Source: an uncultured Candidatus Saccharibacteria bacterium (GTDB taxonomy: Bacteria; Patescibacteriota; Saccharimonadia; Saccharimonadales; Saccharimonadaceae). From it: a DNA stretch of 64,000 nucleotides. A program made the position numbers and the translations under genes. Of the stretch, positions 9,547 through 64,000 are shown in pieces (within the stretch, counting starts at the first letter, position 1; each line of letters opens with the position of its first letter). Under the pieces are notes generated by a model that was given only the letters and a program-made list of their open reading frames with translations, was not told the DNA's origin and ran no database searches. The DNA lies in assembly GCA_964616255.1 (NCBI GenBank), contig CAZTQW010000006.1, positions 2,389-66,388 of the forward strand. Reading direction: 5' to 3'.

Positions 9547-12500
9547 CTACTGCACTTTGACACATTCGCTGCCCAATAGCTCCGTGAGTGGCCCCATTAG
9601 ATCGTCATTAACATCGATGCGAAATGGTAATTTCAATGGTCGTTTCTTCTCCCCTTCCTTGATCACCATAATGATTTCCTGTACTCCAGGATTTAGCTCA
9701 CAGAGATGACGAATTTCACTTAGGGCCTCGGTATTATCAGGATTCTCGATCAGCACGTAAAGCTTCTCGCCCCGCGGATCTTTAGGCGGATCTACTGGAG
9801 CATGCGATCCTTCGATACTTGAACTACTTGGAGCACTACCATATCCTGCACTTACCGTCGCAGCCCGACTTCTACGGCTAGGTTTAGGAGCGGCTGCTTT
9901 AGGAACAGGTAATTTTTGCCCAGTTGGTTGATACTGCTCAAGGATTTCATCGGCGACAAGTTCAACCTTGTCAGCGATAATTTTTGCATCACTACTGATG
10001 CTGCCATCTTTATCTTTGGCATTAACCCGTCCTATAACTTTAATTACATTATCTTGTTCTAGCTTCCCTCCGACTTCAGCATACAAACTGGGAAAAATAA
10101 TTACTTCTTGCTCAGCAATTTTATTCTCGAGCTTTACGAAGGCCATTTTGGTCCCGCTCTTGGTCATGATGGTGCGCACCGAGCTAATGAGTCCACCAAT
10201 GCTGAGCATCTTACCATCATTTTCGGGCGAAACGAGATCATAGCTGTGAGTCTGCTCGCTGAAATAAGTCTCGTAACGGTCAAGTGGGTGACTAGAAACA
10301 TACAGCCCCATGAGGTCGCGCTCCCAGAGCAAACGCTCTTTTTCTGGGAACTTAGTAGGCGCAGGCTTGATCTCTGGCTCTGGTATTGCACCGGCCTCGC
10401 CCATTGCCCCGAATAAGTCGGTCTGACCACTAGCAGCATCTTTTTGGCGCTTTGCTCCATAAGCTTGGATATTTTCAAGATTAAACAGCAAGTCGCTACG
10501 ATCAGCAAACCGATCAAAGCTCCCTGTCTTAATCGCCGCTTCCCATGACTTTTTGTTGAATTTACTTGAACTTACCCGAGCAGCAAAATCACAAACACTA
10601 GTAAAGGGGCCGTTCTTGTCGCGCTCCGGAATAACATATTCTTCTACCAGTGCCTTGCCCATATTCTTGATACCAGAAAGTCCGAAACGGATCGTCTTCT
10701 CTCCACCCACAATACCAAAATCACCGTATGATTCGTTAATATCAGGCCCTAAGACCTTGAGGCCCATGCGCTTACATTCGGTAATTTCAATGGCGAGACG
10801 ATCCGTCCAACGCATATCTGCGGTCATCAAGGCCGCCATGAAGGCATCGGGGTAATGAGCCTTAAGATATGCGGTCCAATAAGCTACTAGGCCATAGCAC
10901 GCGGCATGACTCTTATTAAAGCAGTAATTCGCGAAATCCAAAAGCTCCGTCCAGAATTGTTCAGCAATTTCTTCGGTAGCTCCACCCACTTCTACGGCAC
11001 CTTTGATGAATTCAGGCTTCACCTTATTCATAAGGTCAACTTTCTTTTTACCCACTGCCTTACGCAAGGTATCAGCCTGACCACCAGTAAATCCACACCA
11101 TTCGCGAGAAATCTGCATGAACTGCTCCTGATAGATCATGATACCATAAGTATTCTTAAGTGAGCTCTCTAGACCAGGGTGCAAGTAGGTAATTGGTTCT
11201 TCACCGTGTTTGCGACGAATGAAGCTATCAATGAACTGCATAGGCCCTGGGCGATAAAGGGCCACCATAGCGATGATATCCTCAAAACAGTTAGCTTTAA
11301 GATCGCGCAGATAACGTTTCATGCCGGCCGACTCCAGCTGAAAGACACCGGTGGTTTCTGCTCGCTGCAAGAGTTCGTAAGTTTTTTGATCGTCAAGCGG
11401 TAAATGCACCAGATCAACATCATCATGGTAGACTTTGCGGATCATTCTAAGTGCATTATTAATAACAGAAAGGTTGCTCAGACCCAAAAAGTCCATCTTG
11501 AGCAAGCCCATCTCTTCAATCTGACCCATGGGGAATTGAGCGGCAATCGGGCCCTTGGCCGAAACTTCCAGCGGAACAATCTTTTCTAGATCGTCCGGCG
11601 CGATAATTACACCACAAGCATGTACACCATGATTGCGAATTGTGCCTTCCATTTTGCTAGCAAAGTCTAGCACTTCTTTAGAAACAGGATTGGTTTGATA
11701 CTCGTTACGAAGATCGGGTACGTCTTTGATGGCATCGGCTAGGTGTACATGATGACCTTGCACCGGATCGGGTACTAGCTTGGCCAAGCGATCCGCATCA
11801 GCATAAGGCACTTCTAGCACTCGCGCTACGTCGCGCACGGCATTCTTAGCCATCATCTTACCAAAAGTGGCAATGTTGGAAACGCGCTCACTACCATATT
11901 TGCGCGCACAATATTCAATTACCTCGTCACGGCGAGTATCCTGAATGTCAGTATCAATATCTGGCATAGAGATACGGTCGGGGTTCAAAAAGCGCTCAAA
12001 AAGTAAATCATATTTCAGCGGATCGAGCTCGGTAATCCTCAGGGCATAAGCCAAAATACTACCAGCCGCCGAACCACGACCAGGGCCAAAAACGATGCGT
12101 TGACTCTTGCCCCAGTTAATAAAATCCTGCACGATTAAGAAATAACCGTTGTAGCCCATCTTATCTACCACTCCCAGCTCGTAGTCGATCCGAGGCAGTA
12201 CCTTCATTTTTTCTTCGGCGCGTTCTGGTGTCTGGTCAACTTCTTCTAGGATTTTCCGGCATTCTTCTACCGTAAGGTTAGTGGTTTCTTCGAGTTTCTT
12301 ATTGCCATAACGATAAACCAGCCCTTGAAAAACTAACTTATCGAGGTAGCTTTTTTCATTCTCGCCGTCTGGCAAGGGGAATTTAGGAATGAGGATTCTT
12401 CCTAGCTGTAAATCAACATTGCAGCGGTCGGCAATACGTCGAGTATTACGTACAGCCTCCGGAAAATCTTTACCCCAACGTGCGATAATGTCATTAGGTG

Positions 12501-26547: not shown

Positions 26548-26751
26548 TTCGTCCGTAACGGGTGGCTGAGCCTTAATAATAGTGCTCTAAAAAACTTTGG
26601 CCACGTTGGCCACAATTGGTCGCGCACTAGTGCTAATCTCGGATCGCCAATTAATGCACGGGCTTATTATATTGCATTTAGCAATCCACCTGTTGATTCA
26701 TCTATAATCAGTGCTCGGTTTTACGGTTTCCCCGTCCGCTGTTTGGTATAC
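26548..26751 (+). repeat. Cassette C1: start-less CLec/FISUMP-like C-terminal segment
   Basis: 204 nt, stop-free: FVRNGWLSLNNSALKNFGHVGHNWSRTSANLGSPINARAYYIAFSNPPVDSSIISARFYGFPVRCLVY; ends shared with C2 and C3. Confidence 0.85.
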
Positions 26752-26790
26752 CAGTTAATCTTCTGTACTACTTTTCTCAGTCCGCGTGAA

Positions 26791-27028
26791 TCTTTTGAGG
26801 GGCAGCCAACTCCTTGACTAGGTTCAAAAGATGTGCGAGAATGAGATTACAAATTTGTTGCTTACTTACGTTTCCGTTTTGGGACGTAAGTAATTTTTAG
26901 TTTCAAAACTGTGAGACTAAAGGCAAGTTTCCATACACGGAAATGTATTACCATACAAACTCTTCCTCCCTTCCCCTGCATAGTTTTCTAAGACTCTTTG
27001 TCAAGTTTCGGCTACCCTGAGTCTTAGA
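26791..27028. ncRNA. Densely structured intergenic segment, six adjacent stem-loops (candidate RNA)
   Basis: Stems at 26791-26831, 26862-26893 (TTACTTACGT/ACGTAAGTAA), 26896-26921, 26928-26943, 26944-26957 and 26987-27028 (TCTAAGACTC/GAGTCTTAGA). Confidence 0.5.
26862..26954 (-). CDS. Candidate 30-aa basic amphipathic peptide (type I toxin-like)
   Basis: MVIHFRVWKLAFSLTVLKLKITYVPKRKRK*, with GGGAGG about 10 nt upstream; below the ORF-track cutoff. Confidence 0.35.
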   Translation of the reverse strand: MVIHFRVWKLAFSLTVLKLKITYVPKRKRK

Positions 27029-27079
27029 CTAGCATAAATTGAGAGAAATTAACAAGCATATCCGTGATGTTTTTTATTA

Positions 27080-27283
27080 GTATACTAAACAGCGGACGGG
27101 GAGACCATACCAACGACTGTAATTAGCAGATGGGTTAACACCTGAAGCAGTGAAAGCAAGATTATAAGTATTGGCTGAAGTAGGAGATGAATAACTAGTA
27201 GGATTTTTTGACCAACCATGACCATCATGGCCGAATCGCCTCATAGTACTATTATTAAGATTAACCCACCCGCTACGGACGAA
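27080..27283 (-). repeat. Cassette C2: start-less CLec/FISUMP-like C-terminal segment
   Basis: 204 nt plus TAA: FVRSGWVNLNNSTMRRFGHDGHGWSKNPTSYSSPTSANTYNLAFTASGVNPSANYSRWYGLPVRCLVY*. It lies just past the terminator of the upstream gene. Confidence 0.85.
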
Positions 27284-27296
27284 GTAATCCCGATCG

Positions 27297-27331
27297 AAAA
27301 AAGCAAAAAAGACCCAACCACGGTCAGGCCT
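27297..27331 (-). terminator. Intrinsic terminator of the 27342-28166 gene
   Basis: On the minus strand: AGGCCTGAC-cgtg-GTTGGGTCT followed by TTTTTGCTTTTTT. Confidence 0.7.
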
Positions 27332-27341
27332 TTCGCTAGGC

Positions 27342-28166
27342 TTAATCGCGAAATTCATTCCATCTACGAATCTGCGTTCTTTTAGCATTGTAATGTACGA
27401 AATACAAGTCACCGATCTGCGCTCTTACACCATGCTGTTTTTCGCTGGCGGTTTCTCTAGAAAAGGGTTGCCAGTTTGCCAGTACTTCTTGTCCTAGCCA
27501 GCGGTTACAGACCTGGCCGGTATTATCCAACTCCACAGCAATCGTCGGAACTAGCTGCACTACGTGACGATTATCAGTGCGGCACCATTGATAACTGCAG
27601 TAATGCTCCCAGTTGATAAAACCACCACGATTTTGTGCCTCCAAAGCAGCATCATAGACTTGACAGCGAATGACTAGCATAGGCATATCAGCATCGTTTA
27701 CCAAAAGCCGGCCTACCTCGGCCTCGCCAAAGCTCTCATTAACCATTTCTATGCCCACCTTCTCCAAGGTGATACGGAAATTATCTTCGATATCCTGCGA
27801 ATTGCTGATATTCCAGTTCATCAAACAGCCATAGGCATATCTAAATGGAATTTGAAAGCGCTGGGCCTCGCTGCACACAAATGCCAAGCGCTCGTCTATC
27901 ACTAGATCATGCCAACGAGTACTATCTATAACTAAGCGCTCATCTGATGCATTTAAAATTGGCCATAGGAAATTTCGCTGAGCTAGCTGCACGATTAACA
28001 TTAAACAGGTAAAAATCCGTGCACTCTCTGCACTAAAAATATAAATCTGCCCTTTTGTCATACCCGTCACTATACCAACTTCAAGATAGTCGTCAAAGCT
28101 AGGATAAACTTGGACTATATTCTGGTTTGCGTCAAGGACGGCCGAGTCTTTTATGCCACCAATCAT
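27342..28166 (-). CDS. Orphan hypothetical protein (274 aa)
   Basis: Long ORF with TTGTCA-17-TATAAT promoter, AGGAGG SD and its own terminator; no family recognised. Confidence 0.75.
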   Translation of the reverse strand: MIGGIKDSAVLDANQNIVQVYPSFDDYLEVGIVTGMTKGQIYIFSAESARIFTCLMLIVQLAQRNFLWPILNASDERLVIDSTRWHDLVIDERLAFVCSEAQRFQIPFRYAYGCLMNWNISNSQDIEDNFRITLEKVGIEMVNESFGEAEVGRLLVNDADMPMLVIRCQVYDAALEAQNRGGFINWEHYCSYQWCRTDNRHVVQLVPTIAVELDNTGQVCNRWLGQEVLANWQPFSRETASEKQHGVRAQIGDLYFVHYNAKRTQIRRWNEFRD

Positions 28167-28296
28167 ATTACCCCTCCTTTTGAATGTGCGCCTACAATAG
28201 GTTCTTTTCTTATTATAGCAGTAATTACAGGGGTGACAAGAAAATAATCTTTCAGCCTTCCCTTTTTGAGATAATAGTGATATAATGTAATGAGAC

Positions 28297-28373
28297 GGGT
28301 CGGTAGCTCAGATGGTTAGAGCACGGGCCTCTTAAGCCTGGTGTCGTGGGTTCGATTCCCACCCGACTCACCA
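28297..28373 (+). tRNA. tRNA-Lys (anticodon CTT)
   Basis: GGGTCGG...CCGACTC-A-CCA; arm CGGGC-ctCTTaa-GCCTG; GTTCGATTC. Confidence 0.97.
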
Positions 28374-28450
28374 TATAAAGACAACACGTTTGATACAAAA
28401 GTGAGACTCTGATAGGAGTCTTATTTTGTGATATAATGATGTAGAGGTAT

Positions 28451-28527
28451 GTGCCCGTAGCTCAGTTGGATAGAGCACCAGCTTCCGGAGCTGGGTGTCG
28501 CACGTTCGAATCGTGTCGGGCATACCA
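28451..28527 (+). tRNA. tRNA-Arg (anticodon CCG)
   Basis: GTGCCCG...CGGGCAT-A-CCA; arm CCAGC-ttCCGga-GCTGG; GTTCGAATC. Confidence 0.97.
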
Positions 28528-28552
28528 TGTTTTAGCCTGAAGGAGCATACAA

Positions 28553-29635
28553 GTGATGAAAGTTTTGGAGAATGTACCGATTGCCGAGTTGACTACTATG
28601 CGTTTGGGCGGTGAAGCAAAATACGTATTAGAAGTAGCTAGTTTGGAAGAAATACAGGAGGCTTTTGATTTTGCTAAAAACCAGAATCTACCAGTCTGGG
28701 TAATGGGTGGCGGAGCTAATACTATTGGTCATGACGAAGGGTTTCCGGGTGTAATTATCTTGAATCGTTTACGGGGCATTTTTATACATGGTGATGAAGG
28801 ATTAATAGATGTTAAGGAGTTTGGCGGTTCAGAGCCTGCTCAAGATGAAGCGACTTTTACGGCAATGGCTGGCGAAAGTTGGGACAATCTAGTAGAGGTG
28901 GCCTGCGCCTGGGGCTATTCCGGAATCGAAGCTATGAGCATGATACCTGGCACAGTGGGAGCGGCGCCAGTACAAAATATCGGTGCTTACGGACAAGATA
29001 TTTCTAAGGTGATTGAGCAAGTTGAGGCTTATGATACACAGACTGGTGAATTAGTAAAACTGCCAAAATCGGAAATGCAGATGGGTTATCGACATACGAG
29101 ATTCAACTACGGCAGCGATGCTGGGAGATTTGTAATCTTGTCGGTTACGATTCGGTTGTATAAGGGTAGTCTGCAGCCGCCGTTCTATAATTCTTTACAA
29201 AGATATATAGATAATATGCATGAGACGAATTTTTCTCCAGAGAATATTCGCCGTATGACATGCGAGATTCGCAGTGAGAAGCTGCCCGATCCTGCCAAAA
29301 TTGCCAGTGCAGGTAGCTTCTTTAAGAATGTTTATGTGGATAAAACCGCAGCGGACGAGGCTGAAACAAAGGGTATTCCTGTGTGGCGCAGTAGCGACGG
29401 CAAGGGCAAAATTAACTCAGGTTGGTTGATTGAAGCCTGCGGGTTGAAAGGTGCTGAGCTATATGGCTTTAAAGTTAGCGATAAGGCTGCTTTGGTGCTG
29501 ATTAATGAAAGTGCTACGAGTTATGCGCAGCTGAAAAAAGCTCGATCGCAAATTATTGACGCAGTGAAAAATAAATTTGGCTATACTCTAGAGCAGGAGC
29601 CAGTAGAAATACCGAGCGGAGAAAAGATGATTTAG
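28553..29635 (+). CDS. murB: UDP-N-acetylenolpyruvoylglucosamine reductase
   Basis: TTMRLGGEA, MGGGANT, IPGTVGAAPVQNIGAYG, SAGSFFKN, LEQEPV. Confidence 0.95.
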   Translation: MMKVLENVPIAELTTMRLGGEAKYVLEVASLEEIQEAFDFAKNQNLPVWVMGGGANTIGHDEGFPGVIILNRLRGIFIHGDEGLIDVKEFGGSEPAQDEATFTAMAGESWDNLVEVACAWGYSGIEAMSMIPGTVGAAPVQNIGAYGQDISKVIEQVEAYDTQTGELVKLPKSEMQMGYRHTRFNYGSDAGRFVILSVTIRLYKGSLQPPFYNSLQRYIDNMHETNFSPENIRRMTCEIRSEKLPDPAKIASAGSFFKNVYVDKTAADEAETKGIPVWRSSDGKGKINSGWLIEACGLKGAELYGFKVSDKAALVLINESATSYAQLKKARSQIIDAVKNKFGYTLEQEPVEIPSGEKMI

Positions 29636-29674
29636 TGTAGTTTTATCTCTGGAAAATCAAAAAAGGAGTAAAGA

Positions 29675-30538
29675 ATGAAAATTTTGAATGGTGCTGAGTT
29701 GGCGGGTTACATGAAAGCAAATCAAGCTCACCAGGTGCGTGTCCTAAGGGCGGGAAAGATTCAGCCGAAGCTTGTGATTATTCGTGATAGCGACCAGGCT
29801 GTGATCGCGAAGTATGTAAAACTAAAGCGGAAATACGGTGAGGATATTGGAGTTGTGGTCGAAGATCTTTTAGTTGATGATGTCGCGAATGCTATTGACG
29901 AAGTGAACAAACGCGAAGATGTGCACGGTATGATTGTGCAATTACCACTGAAAAATATCAGTGGTACTAATGAGATAATTGGCCAAATTGATCCCGCGAA
30001 GGACGTTGATGGTTTGGCAACCTATATTCATCTAGTGAATAATGCTAAAAATGTTTATTCATCTGGTGATATATCTCTTGATAAGAATCAGTCGTGTTTT
30101 GAATCGGCGACAGCTACGGCAATTAACTGGTTGATGGCGGGGTATAATATTAAATTGCAGGGCTGCAAGATTGCTATTGTGGGTCACGGAAGGCTAGTGG
30201 GCGCCCCGCTAGAACGAATGTGGCAGAATTCGGGCTATGATGTGCGGGCCTTTAATAAAGGCGACAATCTAACTGAATTGCGAAATTTTGACGTAATTGT
30301 GAGCGCAACCGGTGTACCGCATTTAATTAAAAGTAGTATGGTAAAGCCTGGTGCCGTAGTCGTGGATGCTGGAACGGCGAGTGAAGACGGAGTGTTAGTG
30401 GGCGATGTAGAAGACTCGGTACGAGAGAGGGCTGATCTTAAGGCCATCACTCCGAAAGTTGGCGGTGTAGGACCTTTGACAGTGGCCGCTTTGTTCGAGC
30501 ATGTGCTAATAGCTACAAATAATGCAATTGCAAAATGA
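29675..30538 (+). CDS. folD: Bifunctional methylene-THF dehydrogenase/cyclohydrolase
   Basis: GMIVQLPL, IDPAKDVDGL, IVGHGRLVGAPL, ITPKVGGVGPLTVAALF. Confidence 0.95.
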   Translation: MKILNGAELAGYMKANQAHQVRVLRAGKIQPKLVIIRDSDQAVIAKYVKLKRKYGEDIGVVVEDLLVDDVANAIDEVNKREDVHGMIVQLPLKNISGTNEIIGQIDPAKDVDGLATYIHLVNNAKNVYSSGDISLDKNQSCFESATATAINWLMAGYNIKLQGCKIAIVGHGRLVGAPLERMWQNSGYDVRAFNKGDNLTELRNFDVIVSATGVPHLIKSSMVKPGAVVVDAGTASEDGVLVGDVEDSVRERADLKAITPKVGGVGPLTVAALFEHVLIATNNAIAK

Positions 30539-30579
30539 CGACGTTATTTCTACATGTCACCGTGTGGTAAAATAGAATA

Positions 30580-30996
30580 GTAAGTTTCGAACTTATGGGA
30601 CCCAGAGGGACTATTTTGAGTAAAAGGCTCCAGCACCCCGAGGCTCTCTTGTTAATATAGATCGTGAAGTTACTCTCTAAACATTCCTGAAAGAATTATG
30701 AGGCCAGAAGATTGATCAAGACCACGGCCTTGATTATATCAAGCTAACTTCTTCATCAAGCCACCAACGATATAGTTTGTACTTAATTTTCCCTTTCGTC
30801 CGTAGCGGGTGGGTTAATCTTAATAATAGTGCCTTGAGGTCATTCGGTTATAACGAAAATGTTTGGTCTCGCTCTGCAGCCGCCTACTCTTCCCCTACTT
30901 CAGCCACCGCTTACAACCTCAACTTTGACCCCGCAGGTGTCAACCCGTCCAATGGCCCGAAAAATCGTTGGAACGGTTTCCCCGTCCGCCTTTTTT
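30580..30996 (+). ncRNA. Candidate stand-alone ~415-nt RNA: structured leader plus cassette C3
   Basis: Extended -10 TGGTAAAAT at 30565-30573; hairpins at 30581-30595, 30701-30730 and 30729-30743; terminator-like GGAACGG/CCGTCC followed by TTTTTT at 30970-30996; no downstream + strand gene. Confidence 0.5.
30795..30989 (+). repeat. Cassette C3: CLec/FISUMP-like segment, Asn-codon rich (template-repeat-like)
   Basis: FVRSGWVNLNNSALRSFGYNENVWSRSAAAYSSPTSATAYNLNFDPAGVNPSNGPKNRWNGFPVR. The first 36 nt are identical to C2; it diverges from C1/C2 right after CCCCGTCCGC. Confidence 0.85.
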
Positions 30997-31017
30997 GTCG
31001 CGGTTCGGTGCCGATCT

Positions 31018-33015
31018 TTATTTGCCATGCACAAAATCCACAATAATTTGGGCTACTTTTTCTTTGCCTGCCAAGGCATTAATGCACAGATCATAATTCT
31101 CTGGTCTCCCCCATCTTTGTCCGGAAATCAGTTCGTAATATTCAGATCGTTTACGATCAGATTGCTCCATATTTTTTCGAGCTGCCTTTGCGTCGTCGCA
31201 GTACATTTCTTGAATATTTTTTATCCGGTATTGTTCTGGAGCATAAATATGCACTCGCACAACTTCTGGAAAATTACGCAGGACGTAATCAGCAGCTCGA
31301 CCAACAATTACACAGCTTCCTTGCTTAGCAATCTCTTTTAAAATTACGTCTTGAGCTTCAATGGCATATTTAGCTGGTGAAGTTGTCAAATAAAGTTCGT
31401 GTAAAACTTCTTGCTCATCATTACTGTTAACTTTATTAATATAATCTTTGGTCAAACCACTTTTCTCGGCCGCCAATGCTGTCAGCTCTTTGTAATAATA
31501 CGGAATGTTTAATTCTTTTGCAACCAACTCGCCAATCTTTTTGCCTTGGGAACCATGTTGACGCGAAATTGTGATAATAGGACCAGGATGCGAAGTTTGA
31601 ATCGCTGCATCTTCTGTTGTAGACCTTGCCACAGTATCCAAACGACGGAAATATGCAATCGCCAAAGTAGAAGCGATAATGATACCAATCACATCTGCTA
31701 CTGGCGCCGCCCAAAGAATACCATTAATATTATTCATGATGCGCGGCAGTATTAATACCAATGGAACAAAGAGAATAATATCGCGCGATAGTGAGACAAT
31801 GGCAGCCCTAAGTGGTTCACCAACAGCTTGAAAGAAAATTGAAATTACCTTAATGCCACAAGTAAACGTAATCAACATGAGAAAAATCCGGAAGGTCAGA
31901 GTTGCAAACTGCATATACAACTCAGGATTCTCGGAGTTAGAGCCGAAGATGCGGATAATTGGCTCTGGGCAAAATTCAAAAATAATTGTAGCGACTAGAC
32001 CAACAATCACTGTAGCTATCATGCATTTGCGGAAAGTTTCACGCACGCGTGCTGTGTTACCAGCACCGATATTGAAGCCAAGTATTGGTTGCGCACCAAT
32101 AATAATGCCCATCGCGATGCTCAAGACAATGGTAAACACCTTCATACAGATACCGATGATTGCTAATGGATCATTTGCACCGTATTCAGAGTTTGCTCCG
32201 TAAATGGCGAGCATTTTGTTACAAACCATGGAAATAACTACGATGGATAGCTGCGTGATTAAGGTGGAGATTCCGAGCTTTACGATATTGCTCATGACTT
32301 GACTTTGTGGCTTGAAGCTAGCAAGAGAAAGTTTAAAAGTTTTAGTACGAGTAAGGTAAATAATCGAAATAATGAGAGTTACAATTTGACCGGTAATGGT
32401 GGCCCAGGCGGCACCTTGAATGCCCCAGTTGAGTGCAAAGATAAAAATCGGATCGAGAATAATATTAGTGATCGCTCCCGCGACAGTAGCAATCATAGCA
32501 AAAGCTGGTGAACCATCGGCGCGAATCACCGAATTTAGCATGTAGCCCAACATATAAACTGGGAAAAAACTTAAAATGATAAAGAAATACTGCCTAGCAT
32601 AAACAATGTTATCTGCACTGGCTCCAAATAGCCCTAAAATTTGGTCTGCAAAAACAAATCCTAGTACCACTAAAACAATGCTAATCAAAAACGTGATGAG
32701 CGCACTGCCACCAACGGCATGATGTGCGTTCTTCGTATCTTTGCGCCCTTGGCAAATCGATAGAAAGGCAGCGGTACCATCGCCGAACATACCCGAAAGT
32801 GCCACTGCGGCTAAAGTCAGTGGAAACACAATTGAAGTAGCTGCGTTACCGACGGCTCCCAGGCCCTCAGCTGTACCATGTCCAATAAAGATTTGGTCAA
32901 CGATATTATAAAGTGACGTAATTAATAGTGCTAAAATGCACGGTATAGAAAATTCTAATAACAATTTTGAGATTTTTGCTTGACCAAGATATTTATTGTC
33001 TTTTCCACTATCCAT
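31018..33015 (-). CDS. MATE family efflux transporter fused to a C-terminal cytidylate-kinase-like domain
   Basis: LYNIVDQIFIG, IRADGSP, NIILDPIFIF (MATE), followed by ITISRQHGSQGKKIG...GSCVIVGRAADYVL. Confidence 0.9.
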   Translation of the reverse strand: MDSGKDNKYLGQAKISKLLLEFSIPCILALLITSLYNIVDQIFIGHGTAEGLGAVGNAATSIVFPLTLAAVALSGMFGDGTAAFLSICQGRKDTKNAHHAVGGSALITFLISIVLVVLGFVFADQILGLFGASADNIVYARQYFFIILSFFPVYMLGYMLNSVIRADGSPAFAMIATVAGAITNIILDPIFIFALNWGIQGAAWATITGQIVTLIISIIYLTRTKTFKLSLASFKPQSQVMSNIVKLGISTLITQLSIVVISMVCNKMLAIYGANSEYGANDPLAIIGICMKVFTIVLSIAMGIIIGAQPILGFNIGAGNTARVRETFRKCMIATVIVGLVATIIFEFCPEPIIRIFGSNSENPELYMQFATLTFRIFLMLITFTCGIKVISIFFQAVGEPLRAAIVSLSRDIILFVPLVLILPRIMNNINGILWAAPVADVIGIIIASTLAIAYFRRLDTVARSTTEDAAIQTSHPGPIITISRQHGSQGKKIGELVAKELNIPYYYKELTALAAEKSGLTKDYINKVNSNDEQEVLHELYLTTSPAKYAIEAQDVILKEIAKQGSCVIVGRAADYVLRNFPEVVRVHIYAPEQYRIKNIQEMYCDDAKAARKNMEQSDRKRSEYYELISGQRWGRPENYDLCINALAGKEKVAQIIVDFVHGK

Positions 33016-33316
33016 TTTGTCTCCTTTTGAATTCTAACATTTTGCCCAGTTGCGGAAAAGCACACAGTCTAACAATTATATGCTTTCTGGAAGATTACAA
33101 GCTGGGTTAATTCTTTATATTCTACTCAAGTCTGAAAATCGCGGCAAGTTGTGAATTTTACAACATTTTTTTCATTTTATTATTAACCAATGCCGCGACT
33201 ACTGATTTTGCGATCATTTTGATGTGGTATTTTTAGAAAAAAGTGGTATAATGAAAGATGGTGTCTTATACAGTACCTTATGAATTCGTTATATTAATCG
33301 TCTCGGATTTTTAGAT

Positions 33317-33368
33317 TATCTGGCAGTACTAGGGCTGGGAGAGTTCCTGTTTCTAGTACTGCTAGATA
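33317..33368 (+). promoter_or_regulatory. 16-bp stem hairpin in a 5' UTR
   Basis: TATCTGGCAGTACTAG / CTAGTACTGCTAGATA (one G-T pair), between TGGTATAAT (about 33244) and the GGAGG SD of ORF 33399. Confidence 0.7.
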
Positions 33369-33398
33369 GCAGAAATAAATATAGAGGAGGCATTTATA

Positions 33399-34064
33399 AT
33401 GAAAAATGCGCAAAAACAAACTGTTGGTACAAGTGACAAGGATACTAGTCCGAAACGTAGCTGGAACTTCTTTCCTAAGACAGCTAAGGAAATACCGCCA
33501 GTGAATGTGCTGCAGGAGTGGGGGAGAAAAAATCTGCAGTATATGGTCAAATATTGGGAAACGGTTTTAGCCAAAGGTGGTCATGCCACTGCTTGCTTAC
33601 TCCCGACCGACGTCATATGTCAGCTCACACAAAATATCGGGCAGGCCTTGATTTTGGCAGATGACGCATTTCCGTTGATTCCCGATCTGAGATTAGAAGA
33701 TAATTGGGTGGAAATTGGAGAGACCTTGATTTCATACGAGATTATCTGTGAGGCTGGGGCGCAGTATCGTAAGCTGAAACCTTATCCGGCAACCATACTG
33801 GGCTTCACAAAGTCCGAGCTGCCACCCGAGACTCGAGAGATTGAGCTTCAGATCGTCGAGAAAGATGCAGATTGTGGCTTTGATCAGGTGGTATACGATC
33901 TGTATTCGCCGTATATCATGAAAAATGCTGAAGTAGCATACTTCAGCTCGTATCCGGATGCGATTACTGTATGGTCAGATCTTTGCGGCATCTTTTACCA
34001 TGCTTTTCGCTTGAATAGCGAAATGAAAGGTGTATTAAGACGGTACTTTAACGCAGAGGCATAG
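33399..34064 (+). CDS. Orphan hypothetical protein (221 aa)
   Basis: GGAGG SD, own promoter and downstream terminator; no family recognised. Confidence 0.75.
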   Translation: MKNAQKQTVGTSDKDTSPKRSWNFFPKTAKEIPPVNVLQEWGRKNLQYMVKYWETVLAKGGHATACLLPTDVICQLTQNIGQALILADDAFPLIPDLRLEDNWVEIGETLISYEIICEAGAQYRKLKPYPATILGFTKSELPPETREIELQIVEKDADCGFDQVVYDLYSPYIMKNAEVAYFSSYPDAITVWSDLCGIFYHAFRLNSEMKGVLRRYFNAEA

Positions 34065-34083
34065 ATTATATAACGGATTTTCG

Positions 34084-34111
34084 AGTCCCGGCTGAACAGT
34101 CGGGACTTTTT
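34084..34111 (+). terminator. Intrinsic terminator
   Basis: AGTCCCGGCT-gaac-AGTCGGGACT followed by TTTT. Confidence 0.85.
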
Positions 34112-35897
34112 AATCGCGCTTAAGCATTACCGTAAAAGCTTCACTAGGAATATCAATTTTGCCAAAACGTTTCATACGAGCTTTACCGCGTTTTTGTTTT
34201 TCTAGTAATTTGGCCTTACGATCGCGATCGCCAGTATGGATCTTTACAGTCACATCTTTGCGATAAGCACCGATGGTCTCTCGCGCAATAATCTTTGCTC
34301 CAATCGCCGCTTGCAGAGCCACCTCGTAATTTTGACGAGGAATAACTTCTTTAAGTTTTTTTGTAATTTCCCTGCCTAGAGCATCAGCTTCGCTGCGATG
34401 GCACATGAGGCTAAGTGCGTCCATACGATTCCCGGCCACCAGAAAATCCAAACGCACCAAATCCTCTGGACGATAATCGCAGAGTTCGTAATTAAAACTG
34501 GCATAGCCCGAAGTGATACTCTTAAGTTGATCATAGAAGTCCGTAAGTAAATTTGCCATAGGCGCTTCAAAATCAATCACGGCACGATCCTCAATATAAC
34601 TCAAGTTGGTTTGGTGGCCGCGCTTTTCGTTAATCAGATTCAGCACCCCGCCAATCATATTCTGCGGTAAGATAATTTCGCCCTTGACCCACGGTTCGCG
34701 AATTTCGAGAATGCTTGATTGATCTGGCAAGTCAGCCGCCGAGCGAATGTTTAATTCCTCACCGGCCGCAGTCGTCACTTCGTAATTGGTTGATGGGTTG
34801 GTGATGATTAAATCGAGATTGAATTCGCGCTCTAAGCGCTCTTTGATGATATCCATATGTAGCAATCCCAAAAATCCAATGCGCAGGCCAAAGCCTAGGA
34901 CAGGAGAATTTTCCGGTTCGTAGACCAGCGCTGAATCGGACATTGCTAGCTTTTCGACAGCCTCTTTGAGGTCATCATATTGGTCGTTAGAAACAGGAAA
35001 GAAACCGGCATAGACAAAAGGCAAGACGTTTTTGTAACCGGGAAGAGGCTGCTCGGCGGGAGCTTTAGCCAAGGTGATAGTATCGCCAACCTTAGCCTCA
35101 CGCGTAGTTTTGAGATTGGTCACGATATAGCCAATAGCACCTTCATCAAGAAAATCTCTGGGGCTCATTTTGGGAGTTAATACCCCTACTTCTAAGGCTA
35201 GGCCATTAACTTCCGCAGCCATCATGCGAATTTCGTCGCCCTTCATCAACTTGCCGGCAAAAATCCGCACATAGAGCACCACCCCACGATAATCATCAAA
35301 GTAGGAATCGAAAATCAGGGCACGCAGTTTGGGCGCAGTTTCAAGTTTGGAGCCTCGGGGAGCGGGAGCCCTTGTGACAATTGCATCTAGAATTTCGGTG
35401 ACACCTTGGCCAGTTTTGCCGGAAGCCAGGATAATTTCTTCGCGCGGGCAACCAAGAAGATTAATAATCTGCGCACTAACTTTTTCCACGTCCGCAGCTG
35501 GCAGGTCTACCTTATTGATGACAGGAATAATGTATAAATCTTGTTCTAGGGCTAGGTAGACATTAGCTAAAGTTTGTGCTTGAATTCCCTGAGTAGCATC
35601 AACTACTAGTACCGCAGTCTCGACGGCCTGGAGCGAACGCGAAACTTCGTAAGAAAAATCAACGTGCCCGGGAGTATCTATTAAGTTGAGCTCGTAGCCG
35701 CGCAAGTGCATTTGTACAGGAGTAAGTTTGATCGTAATACCCTTTTCGCGCTCAAGCTCCATCGAGTCTAGCAACTGAGACTTCATCTCACGTTTAGAGA
35801 CAGTACTAGTCAGCTCCATCATACGATCGGCAATGGTTGACTTGCCGTGGTCGATATGAGCAATAATGCAGAAATTACGAATTTTATCGGGGTCCAT
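34110..35897 (-). CDS. lepA: Elongation factor 4 (LepA)
   Basis: IRNFCIIAHIDHGKST, EREKGITIK, LIDTPGHVDF, GFLGLLHMDI, KLLEKQKRGK; start corrected to ATG 35897. Confidence 0.98.
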   Translation of the reverse strand: MDPDKIRNFCIIAHIDHGKSTIADRMMELTSTVSKREMKSQLLDSMELEREKGITIKLTPVQMHLRGYELNLIDTPGHVDFSYEVSRSLQAVETAVLVVDATQGIQAQTLANVYLALEQDLYIIPVINKVDLPAADVEKVSAQIINLLGCPREEIILASGKTGQGVTEILDAIVTRAPAPRGSKLETAPKLRALIFDSYFDDYRGVVLYVRIFAGKLMKGDEIRMMAAEVNGLALEVGVLTPKMSPRDFLDEGAIGYIVTNLKTTREAKVGDTITLAKAPAEQPLPGYKNVLPFVYAGFFPVSNDQYDDLKEAVEKLAMSDSALVYEPENSPVLGFGLRIGFLGLLHMDIIKERLEREFNLDLIITNPSTNYEVTTAAGEELNIRSAADLPDQSSILEIREPWVKGEIILPQNMIGGVLNLINEKRGHQTNLSYIEDRAVIDFEAPMANLLTDFYDQLKSITSGYASFNYELCDYRPEDLVRLDFLVAGNRMDALSLMCHRSEADALGREITKKLKEVIPRQNYEVALQAAIGAKIIARETIGAYRKDVTVKIHTGDRDRKAKLLEKQKRGKARMKRFGKIDIPSEAFTVMLKRD

Positions 35898-35952
35898 AAG
35901 TATAATTATAACACATTTTGGCAGCTTGGAGCATACTAGTATTTTCGCATCT

Positions 35953-35970
35953 TTCGTCTGTAGCGGGTAG
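35953..35970 (+). repeat. C4: decayed 5' end of the cassette family
   Basis: TTCGTCTGTAGCGGGTAG versus TTCGTCCGTAGCGGGTGG (16/18); located in the lepA-tilS intergenic gap. Confidence 0.55.
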
Positions 35971-58490: not shown

Positions 58491-58571
58491 GTGTGGGGGA
58501 AGTCTAGTACATTAATAATGAAGATAAAGATAGTATTTTGTCTTTCTTAATGTACTTGACTTCCCCCGCAC
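58491..58571 (+). promoter_or_regulatory. 81-nt long hairpin in a 5' UTR
   Basis: GTGTGGGGGAAGTC/GACTTCCCCCGCAC (14 bp), then AGTACATTAA/TTAATGTACT (10 bp), then an inner A/T stem; downstream of TTGCAT-17-TACAAT (58448-58476). Confidence 0.75.
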
Positions 58572-58606
58572 CAACCTACAACACACAAAAAAGGAAGGTG
58601 AAAGAG

Positions 58607-59359
58607 ATGGATGAGCAGACCTTGGAAGTATTATCTGCGATAGTTGGGCTTGGAATTGTTGCTATAGTAGCAATATGGTGGCACAGGTTGTCGAAAAAAC
58701 CACCAGAAGATAAGTTTAAGGTATGTAGAGACTACACTTGGTGTATTTGGGAAAAGGGAGCACATGGTGTCTGGAAAGAGAAAAGATTAGGTAGCATACT
58801 ATCACAATGGGAGCAGAAGGAGCTTGATGGCTTAAGAGAGCTTACGACTGAGGATATTCGTAAGATCAATGCTGAGAGAGTCGAGCAGGTAGACCATCGA
58901 GGCAATCCATATTGGTATTTATCAGATAGTTTTATTCAGGAATGTAAATTCCGGAATCCAGGCAGAGCTAGAGGCTGTGGCTATCGATGCATGATTTGTG
59001 GAGGCGAGCACAATCTCAGGACTAGCGATGATAACCCGCGCGAAGGTTTCTGTCCGAGTTGCGCGGCTGCGCTTAAAATTGCTATGCAGAAATATCAAGA
59101 TTTGTCCGATGGTGAACGAAGGGATATGTATGACAAAGAGATTTTAGAAATGATGATAGCTCTAGACCTTGAGGACGGAGTAATATCGCTTGAGCATGCT
59201 AAGGAAGACTATACCAGAATAGAAGAATTAACACAGAGAATGGCTTGTGGCAGGGCCCGGGCGGAAGAAGATCGTAAAAGACAAGAAGAGGAAAAGAGGC
59301 AACAAATTGCGCAGAAAGATCAGGCTATTGCCCGCGGTAAGCACCGAATTTTGTCATGA
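58607..59359 (+). CDS. Orphan membrane-anchored protein with putative C4 zinc ribbon
   Basis: N-terminal TM segment; CMIC-X15-CPSC; C-terminal charged coil; start at ATG 58607 after AGGAAGGTG. Confidence 0.7.
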   Translation: MDEQTLEVLSAIVGLGIVAIVAIWWHRLSKKPPEDKFKVCRDYTWCIWEKGAHGVWKEKRLGSILSQWEQKELDGLRELTTEDIRKINAERVEQVDHRGNPYWYLSDSFIQECKFRNPGRARGCGYRCMICGGEHNLRTSDDNPREGFCPSCAAALKIAMQKYQDLSDGERRDMYDKEILEMMIALDLEDGVISLEHAKEDYTRIEELTQRMACGRARAEEDRKRQEEEKRQQIAQKDQAIARGKHRILS

Positions 59360-59480: not shown

Positions 59481-62400
59481 TTATGGGCTAGGTGGTGTGA
59501 GGCCATTTTGTGCGTTATAAATATCAGCCTCGATATTTGCGCGCGTAATTGCTTGAGCGCGCTGCAACTCAGCCCCAGTCAAAGTGTTACCAGTGGCAAT
59601 ATTTATATATGTGCCATCAGGACGTTGTCTAACTCCAGGAGGAAGCGCCACATGCGCCCTAGCTTGCGGTGTGTTATGTTGGACTTTGAAGCTATCGCCT
59701 GTATGAGCATCATTATATGTACTGCCATATTGGCCACTAAATTTATCGCTAGCGCTAACAATACGATTAGCTGCGATAGTCTGACCTGAACCACCCTGTT
59801 CAATCAGGCTTCCGTCTGCAGCACGGGTGAAGACATGATTATTACCGCCAGCATCACGATTGACATATTGACCATTGGATTGCCTATTATAGAGATTCCC
59901 TGCATCATCATATAGGCTTGTACTTGAAGCCATCGCGTTGAAGGCAGCGCGGCGAATACTGTTGAGCTTGGACTCATTATCTGTCTTAACATGGATATTC
60001 TCATTAGTTAGTGCATCAGTTGCATTGCGGTAAAGAGCATCCAGCTGGTTCGCATCCATAGTGCCGCTATTGACACTCTCCAACAAGCTGTCCAGAGCCT
60101 CGTCGTTAGCATCAGCTAAATCAGACGCACTGCTCTTGTAATTCTGTGCTGCATAATGATCATTACGATATTTGTAAATAGGATTGTCGTCTGCGTCCCT
60201 ACCAACCTCAACTTCCTTAAATTCTCCATGATTAAACACTCCAGACCCATTACCAGTTAGTGCATCTTTTACGGTAGCAGAGAATCCACGATTTCCTTTC
60301 TTGAATGCACCACCGTTTTCTGCCATAAGGGTTTGAGAGACGAATTTCATACCACTTGATAGTCTAGCATTTCTACCCTCGTTGAGGGCCGCCTGCTGCT
60401 CCGCCCTCAATCTCCTATTATAGACATTAGCTATCACATCTTGTCCATCGGCTGTCGCGCCGATAAACTTCTGTAAAGCGCGCACTCTAGCTTGCGCTTC
60501 TTGATTATCTGGATCCGCTTCAAGTTCACTAATGGCTTGATCGTATGCCTGTTCTTGAGCCTTGAGGTCGGCTTTAAATGCGGTGTCATTATCATAAGTA
60601 TCCATAAAGTGCTTAAGTAACTGCGCTGATTGACGAGACTTAATACCTTCCATCCCGTCTTCCGCCGTCTGGTCTGCTATCTGATTAGCAAGCATGTAGG
60701 CACCAGCAGCATTAATTGCTCTAGTCTGAGCTCGGTTCCTAGCATTAGAGTTAAGCAGGCTGTCACTAGCACTTGACATGCCAATTCTGTTCAACCCTCT
60801 AGCCAACCGTCCACGGAGATCTCTATTATCTTTGAAACGATTTACTCGACGCATAGCATCTTGTCCAGCTCTTCTTTGCTGCAAGTCCTTCATACCTTCT
60901 GTTCCACGGACAGCACCGGTAAGTCCACGGCTCCACCGATCACGCAAGCCCATCATGCGATTCCCTAGATTCCCCATAGCTTGGAACGAACTACGCACGA
61001 TCGTAGGGATAAAGAACACTGGAACAATTTGAATTAACATCGCCACCAGCTGAAAGAAGAATCCTGCCCCAGTACTATGGCCTACCTTCAAAAGTAGCTT
61101 CGAAGCAAATTCACCTCCACCGACTAGTGCTCCACAAATTGGATATAAAAGCAGAAGCGATGTTAGTATCTTAAACCAACGATCATAAACTTTTTTAGTA
61201 TTAGGCAAGGCATAACAAACGATCGCTATTGGAGACAGAACCACTAATATTATAATTCCAGCCTTACGCACACCGAGCAGAATTGCAAAGAAAAGCACTG
61301 AGATTACTGCACCAATCATAAATAGAATCAAAGGCACTACCCAGATGGCTGTATTATTTACTAGGAAGTTGATTCCAACAAAAGCCACAGCGCCCGTAGT
61401 TACCCAGGCTGCCACACCTTTGGCAAATGACGCGATCGAAGTTGCCGTATTTGTAGGTACTTCTATTGATATATTATTAAATAGATCATAGATACTGGCC
61501 CCTACAATATTAGATACGTCAACTGCAATTTGGCAGATAATGAATGACAAGTTCACTAATACGGCCACGATAATCAACTTTGGTAAAATTTTCTTGACGT
61601 TATAATTATCCAGTCCAACACCTGTAACTTGGGAGAAAATCACGACCAAGAACACAATTACAAAAGCAATATTGGCATAATTACGAATATCTACCCAAAC
61701 ACTACGGGTATCATCTCCCATTAGGTCAGCCTGCATTTCGAGATTTGGAGCGATCGCGTCAACATAAACACCCTCTGTGACCGTTGCGAGTATATTTAAT
61801 ACCGGGCACAAAATCCAACTAAGGGAACTAGAACTATTGTAACATGTCGGAGCAGTTTCTTCGTCAATCTCTCCAGAATCGCCTGGTCCGTCTGGTTTGA
61901 CGGGCGGCGGTGTAGGTGGTTCTGGTTCCGATACCTGACCATTTACATCAGTATACTCGTAGCACATAATTACATCGTTTTGTTCGTACCAGTAAATTTG
62001 CTCATCTTCGCCCTTACCAAAGGTGTTAGTCTTCTTCAAAATCGCATCTAGCTCATTTAGAGTTTTTTGAGCCTTCTGGCGATACTCATCACTGGTAGTG
62101 CTCTGCTTTAATAAGGCATCAGCAGCATGTCGAGAGGCGAGAGCGGCACTGTTACAGGCTTGCTTCTGTTCGTCTTTAAAAGCCTTCAGCTGCGCGCCAT
62201 TCATTTCCAGAATTTCTGCAAAGGTTTTTTCGATTTTGCTACCCAAATAATTATTTGAGTCCCAGACTACAACTTTTTTCTGGGCATTTTTCGTGGCTTT
62301 AACATAACAGGATTGTATGGTGCCATCGTCAGAAACAATGTCATATGGACCAATGTAACCATCACCTTTGAGCTGACTACTATCTAGTCCAGAACCGCAT

Positions 62401-63404: not shown

Positions 63405-64000
63405 TTAGCCTCCTTCTCGCTAGGTAGAATAATTGGATTCTGGAATTGTTTACTAATTGCCCAACAATCTTGTGTGAGAAATTGAATTAGCGAGACAATG
63501 GTTTCTTCCGCTAAGAAATCATACTGATCGGCCGTGTCGATATGTTGAAGAAGTGCCGCTTCATCAATTTGTGGGCAGGAATTATTAACTTCGCCCGATG
63601 TTAAACAGCCGGCAGCATTGTATTGTTCGTAATAATCAATGAAAGCCGAGTACTGAGCTATTTTATAATCCACATAGCTATCAGCATAGATCACATTAAA
63701 TTCCAACAGTGGCTCGAATATTTCTTTGATGTAGGACACTGCAGCTGATTTACCAGAATCTACTAGAGTTGAGATGATGGTTGATTCGTTTGGTTCGGCT
63801 AATTGGCGGTAGGCTCGTAAGAACTGAAAGGCGCTACGATATTCATCTAAAGCTGCTAACAAAGTAGAATTAGCCGAGTCACCCATTTCATGGTATTTAT
63901 CTACTGACTCATTAAGCAGGGTCTCAGTCTTGTCCCAATAGGCTTGCCCAAATGCATCGCCCTCCATCTGTTCTTCCAAATCATAAACTGACCAGCGGTC
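63401..64000 (-). CDS. Hypothetical protein, 5' end beyond the window
   Basis: The frame stays open from 63979 to the window end; 4-bp overlap with the next gene. Confidence 0.7.
   Translation of the reverse strand, partial: DRWSVYDLEEQMEGDAFGQAYWDKTETLLNESVDKYHEMGDSANSTLLAALDEYRSAFQFLRAYRQLAEPNESTIISTLVDSGKSAAVSYIKEIFEPLLEFNVIYADSYVDYKIAQYSAFIDYYEQYNAAGCLTSGEVNNSCPQIDEAALLQHIDTADQYDFLAEETIVSLIQFLTQDCWAISKQFQNPIILPSEKEAK

Follow-up and report, generated by a model that had tools for sequence, protein, structure and literature searches.

What keeps reading frames of about 200 bp intact between the genes of a reduced genome when none of them has a credible start? The question is raised by a 64,000-nucleotide stretch (hereafter the window) of an uncultured Candidatus Saccharibacteria genome (contig CAZTQW010000006.1, positions 2,389 to 66,388), whose sequence is present in rat and mouse gut metagenomes. 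Three such cassettes, C1, C2 and C3, are scattered in it, together with C4, a decayed cassette remnant. Saccharibacteria are obligate epibionts, and their host range depends on surface recognition. A first-pass annotation of the window had suggested that the cassettes are silent donors for gene conversion, remote templates of a diversity-generating retroelement (DGR) or ectopically inserted DGR cDNAs. Here we argue that they are probably substrates, templates and relics of a DGR-type system in a widespread ~200-bp family.

C3 and a partner copy as template and variable repeats

The source samples are runs X1–X4, and the related strains include X5/X6 and X7/X9. Over C3, the assembly graphs of X1 and X3 split into two branches, one identical to C3 (depth 43–45) and one that has 10 differences in one half and 9 in the other (depth 58–68 in X1 and 26–31 in X3). 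The branches rejoin in a shared unitig and their depths are additive (43 + 58 to 115); the ratio of partner to template depth, 0.7–1.5 across five samples, agrees with a single copy of each in a genome. With unitigs compared at a likeness of at least 88%, 11 of the 14 listed changed places in X1 and X3 fell on adenines of C3 (p = 5e-6 against the 20.5% A in C3), as did 7 of 10 in X5 (p = 1e-3) and 4 of 7 in X6 (p = 0.04). The changed codons are N20, E21, N22, N41, N43, D45, N50 and N53; by inference, K56, N57 and N60, which come from a looser run at 80% likeness, are further changed sites of the same partner. C3 itself has 0–1 differences in X1, X2, X3, X5 and X6, and the partner carries different bases in X1 and in X5/X6 at the same adenines (T/G at 30853, T/C at 30858, G/T at 30915 and G/C at 30951).

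C3 is also set apart by its codons and its 3′ end. Eleven of its 65 codons are AAY, and in a comparison set of 58 unique cassettes the copies with the tail of C3, which we call the template-repeat (TR) tail, all rank within the top 4 by AAY count. Common to all cassettes is TCCCCGTCCGC, which is followed by CTTTTTTGTCGCGG in C3 and by TGTTTGGTATAC in other cassettes; the partner, after CCGTCCGC, runs into TGCCTGGCAGAC, which is neither the C3 tail nor the common tail. The TR tail, GTCGCGGT(T/G)CGGTGCCGATCT, also stands behind two Asn-rich cassettes of related loci (L141 4405–4605 and L146 9899–10096), and the three copies have 11–12 AAY codons at homologous positions despite the divergence of their scaffolds (synonymous differences, pS, 0.33–0.54). 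In the source sample the TR tail reaches 8–12 times the genome depth, and it is present on at least three more contigs whose depth is genome-like. Upstream, a stretch of about 55 nt can be aligned between C3, L141 and L146 though the neighbouring genes differ; this flank is possibly a promoter or the 5′ part of a template RNA. A promoter scan upstream of C3 gave nothing convincing, folding of C3 RNA with its flanks gave no significant structure (z = 0.34), and the RNA runs contain few contigs, at a depth of at most 8.5, too thin to use.

The adenine-specific partner, the strain-specific bases at the same adenines, the AAY-rich codons and the distinct 3′ tail together support C3 as a DGR template repeat, with the partner, outside the window, as its variable repeat (VR). 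The dispersed copies bear target-type tails (TGTTTGGTATAC plus a stop) and not the template tail, which makes the suggested origin as ectopic cDNAs unlikely.

Distribution and constraint of the cassettes

Positions are collected in Table 1. The 18-nt 5′ motif, TTCGTCCGTARCGGGTGG, occurs without mismatch at 26548 (+), 27283 (−) and 30795 (+) and with two mismatches at 35953 (+), against a chance expectation of 0.04 hits in the window; the 3′ motif is found at 26725, 27106 (−) and 30975, one per full cassette. Identity between C1 and C2 is 129/204 (63%), with 31/36 at the 5′ end and 25/27 at the 3′ end, and the first 36 nt of C2 and C3 agree at 36/36. These figures, like the coordinates, end motifs and 204-nt lengths, reproduce exactly those of the first-pass annotation, the overall identity of C2 and C3 being recomputed as 70%. 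Each of C1, C2 and C3 is stop-free in the FVR(S/N)G...G(F/L)PVR frame, which about 12% of random 204-nt stretches from the window are in a given frame. Their leaders are mutually unrelated, with neither a conserved start nor an upstream domain, again as annotated. Within the 5′ motif, TTCGTCCG-TAG-CGGGTGGG (30795–30813; also in C1 and C2) may form an 8-pair hairpin with G–T pairs and was flagged by a terminator scan. At 26558, C1 has A where the other copies of the motif, and C1 of four related strains, have G (TAACGGG versus TAGCGGG).

Table 1. Cassettes of the window and their associated parts, with examples of cassette open reading frames (ORFs) from relatives.
Feature	Position	Strand	Description
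C1	26548..26751	+	Solitary target-type cassette, 204 nt, 68 codons FVRNG...PVRCLVY; no stop right after CLVY
C2	27077..27283	−	Solitary target-type cassette, 204-nt body 27080-27283, 68 codons FVRSG...PVRCLVY; convergent with C1
C2 stop	27077-27079	−	TAA directly after CLVY
C3	30795..30989	+	TR-type cassette, 65 codons FVRSGWVNLNNS...NGFPVR, 11 AAY (Asn) codons
C3 TR-type 3′ tail	30990..31020	+	CTTTTTTGTCGCGGTTCGGTGCCGATCTTTA; replaces TGTTTGGTATAC plus stop of other cassettes; IMH*-like
C3 upstream flank	30715..30770	+	~55 nt, ATCAAG...CTTGAT inverted repeat, AACTTCTTCA; common to TR-type copies
C4	35953..35996	+	Decayed 44-nt 5′ stub TTCGTCTGTAGCGGGTAG...TTATAATAGT with 8-nt insertion; lepA/tilS divergent intergenic region
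Example 70-170-aa cassette ORFs			MRIFTLINVRSG...; ldh–tdk ORF

In other contigs the cassettes stand singly, in tandem (spacers of 3 to ~100 nt) or head to head, as in L001, where inverted 5′ motifs lie 11 nt apart; there too they are found between core genes (at nusA, between rplJ and rplA, near rplK, and between ldh and tdk). The depth of the end motifs in the source sample, 20–180 times the genome depth of ~43, and the density of cassettes in related loci, one per 5–20 kb, make dozens of copies per genome likely. Two of these loci, L003 (1627–1725) and L004 (867–1068), which come from two samples, have the same two tandem cassettes with one substitution in the second, and a 103-nt indel in the spacer.

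Third-position entropy is 0–0.4 at codons 1–3 and 74–78, against 1.2–2.0 at conserved internal Gly, Ser and Pro codons, which indicates that the ends, including their four-fold degenerate sites, are conserved as DNA and the interior only as protein. Between sub-families, pairwise dN/dS is ~0.4, with dS saturated. These patterns bear on the simplest alternative, that the cassettes are ordinary debris, decaying 3′ fragments of an expanded surface-protein family in which the adenine pattern is the fossil of a lost DGR. C4 has indeed decayed, C3 has lost its CLVY end, C1 and C2, both solitary, are stable in several strains, and no reverse transcriptase (RT) was found in the window or the related loci searched; in Treponema denticola, isolates without RT and TR keep target genes, and truncated targets of 58–136 aa occur (PMC4891356). 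We nevertheless regard debris as improbable. All 58 of the unique cassettes are intact over 63–68 codons despite saturated synonymous divergence, and the synonymous sites at their ends are frozen across distant lineages. Strains with 97–100% identical flanks differ at the adenines of C3 or in the entire cassette, which points to recent events.

Homology to a lectin-like surface domain

Single cassettes matched no Pfam or NCBIfam model. An exhaustive hidden Markov model (HMM) search over 1.84 billion representatives yielded 1,628 relatives (285 at E < 1e-10), so that the family comprises more than 1,600 mostly short ORFs, and all strong single-cassette matches are shorter than 210 aa. A word-index search returned only ORFs of 72–103 aa, in each of which a random leader runs into FVRSG...PVRCLVY and then a stop. 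Many relatives are read-throughs of two to five tandem cassettes, some of them translated in another frame (YFVRSG becomes ISSVVA in the +1 frame). It is these multi-cassette relatives that pass the cut-off of the FISUMP profile TIGR02145 (41.65), over positions ~110–176 of its 176; P0024 scores 74 bits and P0151 44 bits, on the C-terminal third only. Profile–profile comparison by HHalign with the FISUMP-type domains of a 6,311-aa protein gave a probability of 96.7% (E 4e-10) over the last 60 columns. An AlphaFold2 model of the fullest relative, P0163, was unusable (pLDDT 38), and a sequence search of the PDB gave no relevant match.

On the TIGR02145 positions matched and the profile–profile comparison, the cassette is, as judged from sequence, the C-terminal ligand-binding third of a FISUMP/C-type-lectin-like (CLec) surface domain. 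The likeness to FISUMP and CLec C termini named in the first-pass annotation is thus real in the multi-cassette relatives and by HHalign, although indirect, in that single cassettes match no model. In both FISUMP (TIGR02145/PF09603) and Lcl_C/DUF1566 (PF07603) domains, the last ~60 residues align with the cassette in the pattern G..G.yWS...AY.L.F.....PS....R..GfpVRC, and the first two thirds of the domain are missing from the cassettes.

No full-length gene sharing the cassette ends appeared among the word-index hits (6 + 15 + 68) or the best 150 of the 1,628 HMM relatives; the long HMM matches are read-through arrays or a Bacteroidota-type giant protein. The fuller relatives P0052, P0164 and L145 add a CP(K/G)W.LP segment yet are 5′-truncated, and every one of the 5′-extended copies that reach this segment and beyond starts after a stop codon. 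When the window and the related loci were searched with an HMM of the full FISUMP-type domain, its N-terminal two thirds were not found. The only complete genes that we encountered, with an N-terminal membrane anchor and one or two domains, belong to a distant oral lineage (L130) and differ in their DNA ends. One of that lineage's FISUMP-type genes (L130 5349–6320; also L131–L133) has an in-frame TGA at a Trp conserved in its paralogues (KC W MTQNLRL). The TGA, present in four samples, is a nonsense mutation that has become fixed or else a codon that is read through or recoded.

Among metagenome-assembled genomes (MAGs) in GTDB, two labelled Candidatus Saccharibacteria (L064 and L078) contain cassettes. 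A 14-mer scan of GTDB genomes gave mostly chance matches, with cassettes only in L064, L078 and L117, and the family is probably confined to Saccharibacteria.

C1 and C2 as solitary target-type cassettes

When C1 and C2 are compared with C3, 20–24% of mismatches fall at A, which equals composition, and third positions dominate; C3 was accordingly ruled out as the template of either. C1 and C2 compared with each other likewise show no adenine bias and differ at many third positions. Among C1, C2 and C3, dN/dS is 0.2–0.45 with synonymous divergence saturated, in keeping with the earlier remark that many of the differences are synonymous. As templates for cassettes of other samples, C1 and C2 gave only a weak bias (p 0.007–0.03 before multiple testing), from which we claim nothing.

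The central parts of C1 and C2 are single-copy in the source sample (C1 depth 41), where neither has a partner copy. C1 shows 1 difference in 283 nt in four related strains, and its 3′ flank (26752–26795) resembles that of the second cassette of L003/L004. C2 is identical in X5/X6; in X7/X9 its flanks are present and its body is unmatched at a likeness of at least 88%. The 3′ flank of C2, TAATAAAAAACATCACGGATATGC, also accompanies a cassette of another locus (L005). C1 and C2 are most readily interpreted as solitary cassettes of target type from older sub-families that would have no matching template in the genome now. The proposal of remote DGR templates therefore stands for C3, with 11/14 changes at adenines, a constant template, AAY codons and a distinct tail, and is not supported for C1 and C2, which have no adenine bias against C3 and no partner.

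Hypervariation and cassette replacement in relatives

Variation concentrated in cassettes recurs at other loci. Between ldh and tdk, four samples are 100% identical over 412 nt through TTCGTCCGTAGTGG, the cassette then differs throughout, with indels of 9 nt and 3 nt, and identity resumes at GGTTTCCCC. Some 40 ‘93-aa’ ORFs of other strains have the leader MLEKYGLQSSVASGxYNIAREPLY in common and differ in the cassette only; one of them, P0186, lies at the same locus (ldh, X, (NYN), tdk). The hypervariable ldh–tdk copies are 5′-truncated domain fragments. Inside the putative N-terminal part of one such ORF is a perfect 17-bp hairpin (L126 ~10075–10115; CGCCCCCTTCTCAAAAT GAA ATTTTGAGAAGGGGGCG-like), which resembles a terminator of antisense transcription and counts against a coding role for this part. 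Between rplJ and rplA, two contigs are 98.3% identical over 17.2 kb (279 mismatches by BLAST), and 75 of the 396 differing positions fall in a 201-nt cassette; in a second cassette on the same contig pair the differences are near background.

The adenine signature also recurs. Five cassettes of one sub-family, from three loci and without indels, have 58 variable columns, 45 of them at codon positions 1–2; the variable codons form NNY sets (GGT/AAT/ATT/CAT and similar), A occupies 8 of the 140 invariant columns, and dN/dS is 1.1–8. Some cassettes stand out as template-like when pairs are tested in both orders. When the TR-type copy L146_9899 (20% A) is set against four cassettes of its sub-family, 49–66% of the mismatches are at its A and 8–14% in the reverse comparison (p 1e-7 to 2e-4 in ordered tests), and within one MAG, L064_3486 differs from L064_2318 at A in 16 of 31 mismatches (p 3e-5). 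Inside orthologous flanks, the L141 and L146 TR-type copies show a mosaic of differences.

Whole-cassette exchange is also what a silent donor library would give, in which the cassettes, like those of pilS, vls or MgPar, feed gene conversion into an adhesin gene expressed elsewhere and vary its ligand-binding tip. The copies are start-less, intact and dispersed, with both ends conserved as DNA, a common 3′ end and variable 5′ truncation; there are dozens of them (end-motif depth peaks of 20–180×), some in tandem and head-to-head arrays. In otherwise identical strains whole cassettes with indels are replaced between the two end motifs, and the mosaic of the L141 and L146 copies fits as well. 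Against such a library, no full-length gene with these ends emerged from three word-index searches and the HMM search of 1.84 billion representatives, the longest copies are themselves 5′-truncated, and the end anchors are short (14–36 nt). Gene conversion, moreover, gives no adenine-specific, AAY-centred and directional variation. As an account of the whole family a donor library seems unlikely to us; it is a live secondary reading in so far as it could coexist with retrohoming.

Dispersal may alternatively be the work of a mobile or recombinase-driven element, such as a repeat resembling a miniature inverted-repeat transposable element, or shufflon-type segments on whose 5′ motif a tyrosine recombinase acts. 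The copies are numerous, intergenic and in both orientations, the 5′ motif can form an 8-pair hairpin, the head-to-head cassettes of L001 have inverted 5′ motifs 11 nt apart, and a 191-aa tyrosine recombinase adjoins cassettes in L140, L141, L146, L149 and L162. This explanation is highly improbable. Inspection of the ends revealed neither terminal inverted repeats nor target-site duplications, the window has no homologue of the L146 recombinase, and at the other loci the recombinase is part of an integrase–relaxase–coupling-protein element. C1 and C2 stand tail to tail and are not bounded by inverted 5′ motifs beside a constant gene part, as shufflon segments would be. The interior is under protein-level constraint, and inversion cannot give adenine-specific changes. 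In L141, L146, L162 and L163 (IMG/VR UViG_3300035327_000487), a TR-type and two other cassettes share one element, listed as viral by IMG/VR, that encodes the 191-aa tyrosine recombinase, a Replic_Relax protein, a TraG/VirD4-like coupling protein and an MT-A70 methyltransferase.

Evidence for and against a retroelement

At the level of sequence, four hallmarks of DGRs are found here: a TR/VR pair that differs at adenines, a constant template, AAY-rich codons, and a 3′ block that resembles the IMH*/IMH sites (initiation of mutagenic homing). An RT next to the template is not found, and several observations weigh against a DGR-type system. Known DGRs normally have template and RT side by side, and the absence of an adjacent RT counts against it. 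As the first-pass annotation had noted, the window holds no RT or full-length acceptor gene, and no RT or Avd emerged from Pfam searches of 20 of its 48 long ORFs, a YxDD scan in all frames and a check of the window ends. Nor was an RT found beside the TR-type copies of L141, L146 and L162, including 14.8 kb of the integrase–relaxase–coupling-protein element, or in the 348 kb of related loci scanned by motif. The flanks of C3 that were examined, the 256 nt between folD and C3 and the sequence downstream, contain no small ORF that is an Avd candidate.

The pair itself has features that do not fit. All read-level evidence comes from assembled unitigs and not from raw reads. Three of the 14 listed changes lie off adenines: codon S16, TCA, has become GTC in one strain and AAC in another. 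A stop lies 10 codons upstream of the partner and an ATG 8 codons upstream, so that no real target gene is in evidence. Cassette swaps with indels, and the many third-position changes away from A, cannot be produced by adenine mutagenesis from one template; such swaps call for several templates in one genome, for ordinary recombination or for the uptake of DNA. Finally, replication was in part unsuccessful: the TR-type copy of L146 has no variant partner of the same depth (at least 80% likeness) in the two mouse-gut runs tested. A third mouse-gut run has a contig of 2× depth in which 6 of 9 listed changes are at adenines of the L146 template, and this TR-type copy is identical in mouse-gut runs of several studies from 2017 to 2025.

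A proposed mechanism

In the DGR-type system that we favour, C3 would be transcribed into a template RNA, which an RT encoded outside the window would copy with adenine-specific errors, and the cDNA would then take the place of the interior of a cassette whose ends match. On the 5′ side the 36-nt block TTCGTCCGTAGCGGGTGGGTTAATCTTAATAATAGT would provide the homology anchor, and on the 3′ side the G+C-rich TCCCCGTCCGC with the target-type tail would act as an IMH-like site. Swaps between sub-families may arise from several templates per genome, from recombination or from both; several templates are suggested by the 8–12-fold depth of the TR tail and by the further contigs that carry it. The start-less cassettes would be 3′ remnants of former target genes, in which the part covered by a template is kept intact by overwriting, or was until recently, and the rest has decayed or been deleted.

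We also put forward, tentatively, a more far-reaching version, a dispersed and trans-acting DGR network in which several tail-marked templates far from any RT rewrite dozens of orphan VR cassettes by retrohoming and the orphan pool is shuffled into an expressed copy. Retrohoming would in that case maintain orphan cassettes as intact, start-less frames long after the decay of their genes, and the common end motifs would let any template, or ordinary recombination, replace any cassette. Such a network would combine mutagenic retrohoming with antigenic variation by cassettes, in an epibiont whose genome is ~1 Mb.

Comparison with known systems

In DGRs of the Bordetella phage BPP-1 type, as here, a non-coding template matches the 3′ end of a lectin-fold domain, the differences lie at template adenines, mainly in AAY codons, and the template is constant where its partner varies by strain. 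What DGRs usually vary is the C-terminal ligand-binding part of a CLec-related domain, to which the cassette is homologous. Their IMH*/IMH sites may be likened to the G+C-rich 3′ block and its divergent template and target tails, which would have the same function here. The differences are equally plain. We found neither RT nor Avd over at least 30 kb to either side of C3, or near three other TR-type copies, and a genome appears to have several TR-type copies. Where DGRs have one to a few full-length targets, we find dozens of start-less target-type cassettes between housekeeping genes; the partner copy is outside any long ORF; and whole cassettes of different sub-families, with indels, replace each other at fixed loci. 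Among DGRs, clade 2 is restricted to the Candidate Phyla Radiation (Roux et al. 2021, PMC8144416).

Parallels are also on record in T. denticola, in which several DGR targets lie far from the RT/TR core and some, truncated to 58–136 aa, were termed ‘suspicious’; targets persist in isolates without RT and TR, and some VRs match the TR type of another strain (PMC4891356). Most targets there are full-length genes of FGE-sulfatase type, 2–7 per genome (PMC4891356), whereas nearly all copies here are bare cassettes, at an estimated dozens per ~1 Mb genome. The pilS/pilE system of Neisseria, MgPar of Mycoplasma genitalium and vls of Borrelia similarly have promoter-less, 5′-truncated copies of the variable part of a surface protein, dispersed or arrayed, with conserved flanking blocks and taking up a sizeable share of a small genome. 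Unlike them, the cassettes have no expression locus that we could find, and their variation is adenine-specific and template-directed, a signature that does not result from RecA-type conversion. In our literature search we met no account of a family of orphan cassettes that number dozens in a genome, nor of multiple templates remote from an RT, nor of such elements among Saccharibacteria.

Hypervariation of a lectin-like tip could plausibly determine host attachment. If the proposed system is real, surveys for DGRs that accept a TR only beside an RT, and a VR only within a called gene, would overlook a whole class of elements, and a diversification machine would maintain many gene fragments, an unusual route of persistence in reduced genomes. 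C3, its partner copy and the ldh–tdk and rplJ–rplA cassettes would then be assayable sites for retrohoming. If these genomes have no RT, the adenine-specific pattern would itself call for a new explanation.

Surroundings of the cassettes

The neighbours of C1–C4 are genes for an ABC-F protein, an unknown ORF, tRNA-Lys/Arg, murB, folD, a MatE/CMK-like fusion, lepA (true start at 35897) and tilS. Rfam at gathering thresholds found three tRNAs in the window and nothing else. Towards its far end, the ORFs at 59481–63404 (−; 1,307 aa), 63401–63979 (−) and 58538–59359 (+) have no Pfam match, and a scan of them with the FISUMP-type HMM was empty; the 1,307-aa ORF and its neighbours could be surface proteins.

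The tail of C3 ends at the stop codon (31018–31020) of a convergent gene, a single 665-aa ORF (31018–33015, −) with a MatE/polysaccharide-exporter-like N-terminal part and a cytidylate-kinase-like C-terminal domain, whose stop abuts the tail. Adjoining C2 is a 274-aa ORF (27342–28166, −) with no Pfam match, and X5/X6 are without the stretch 27422–28032, their contigs joining 27421 to 28033.

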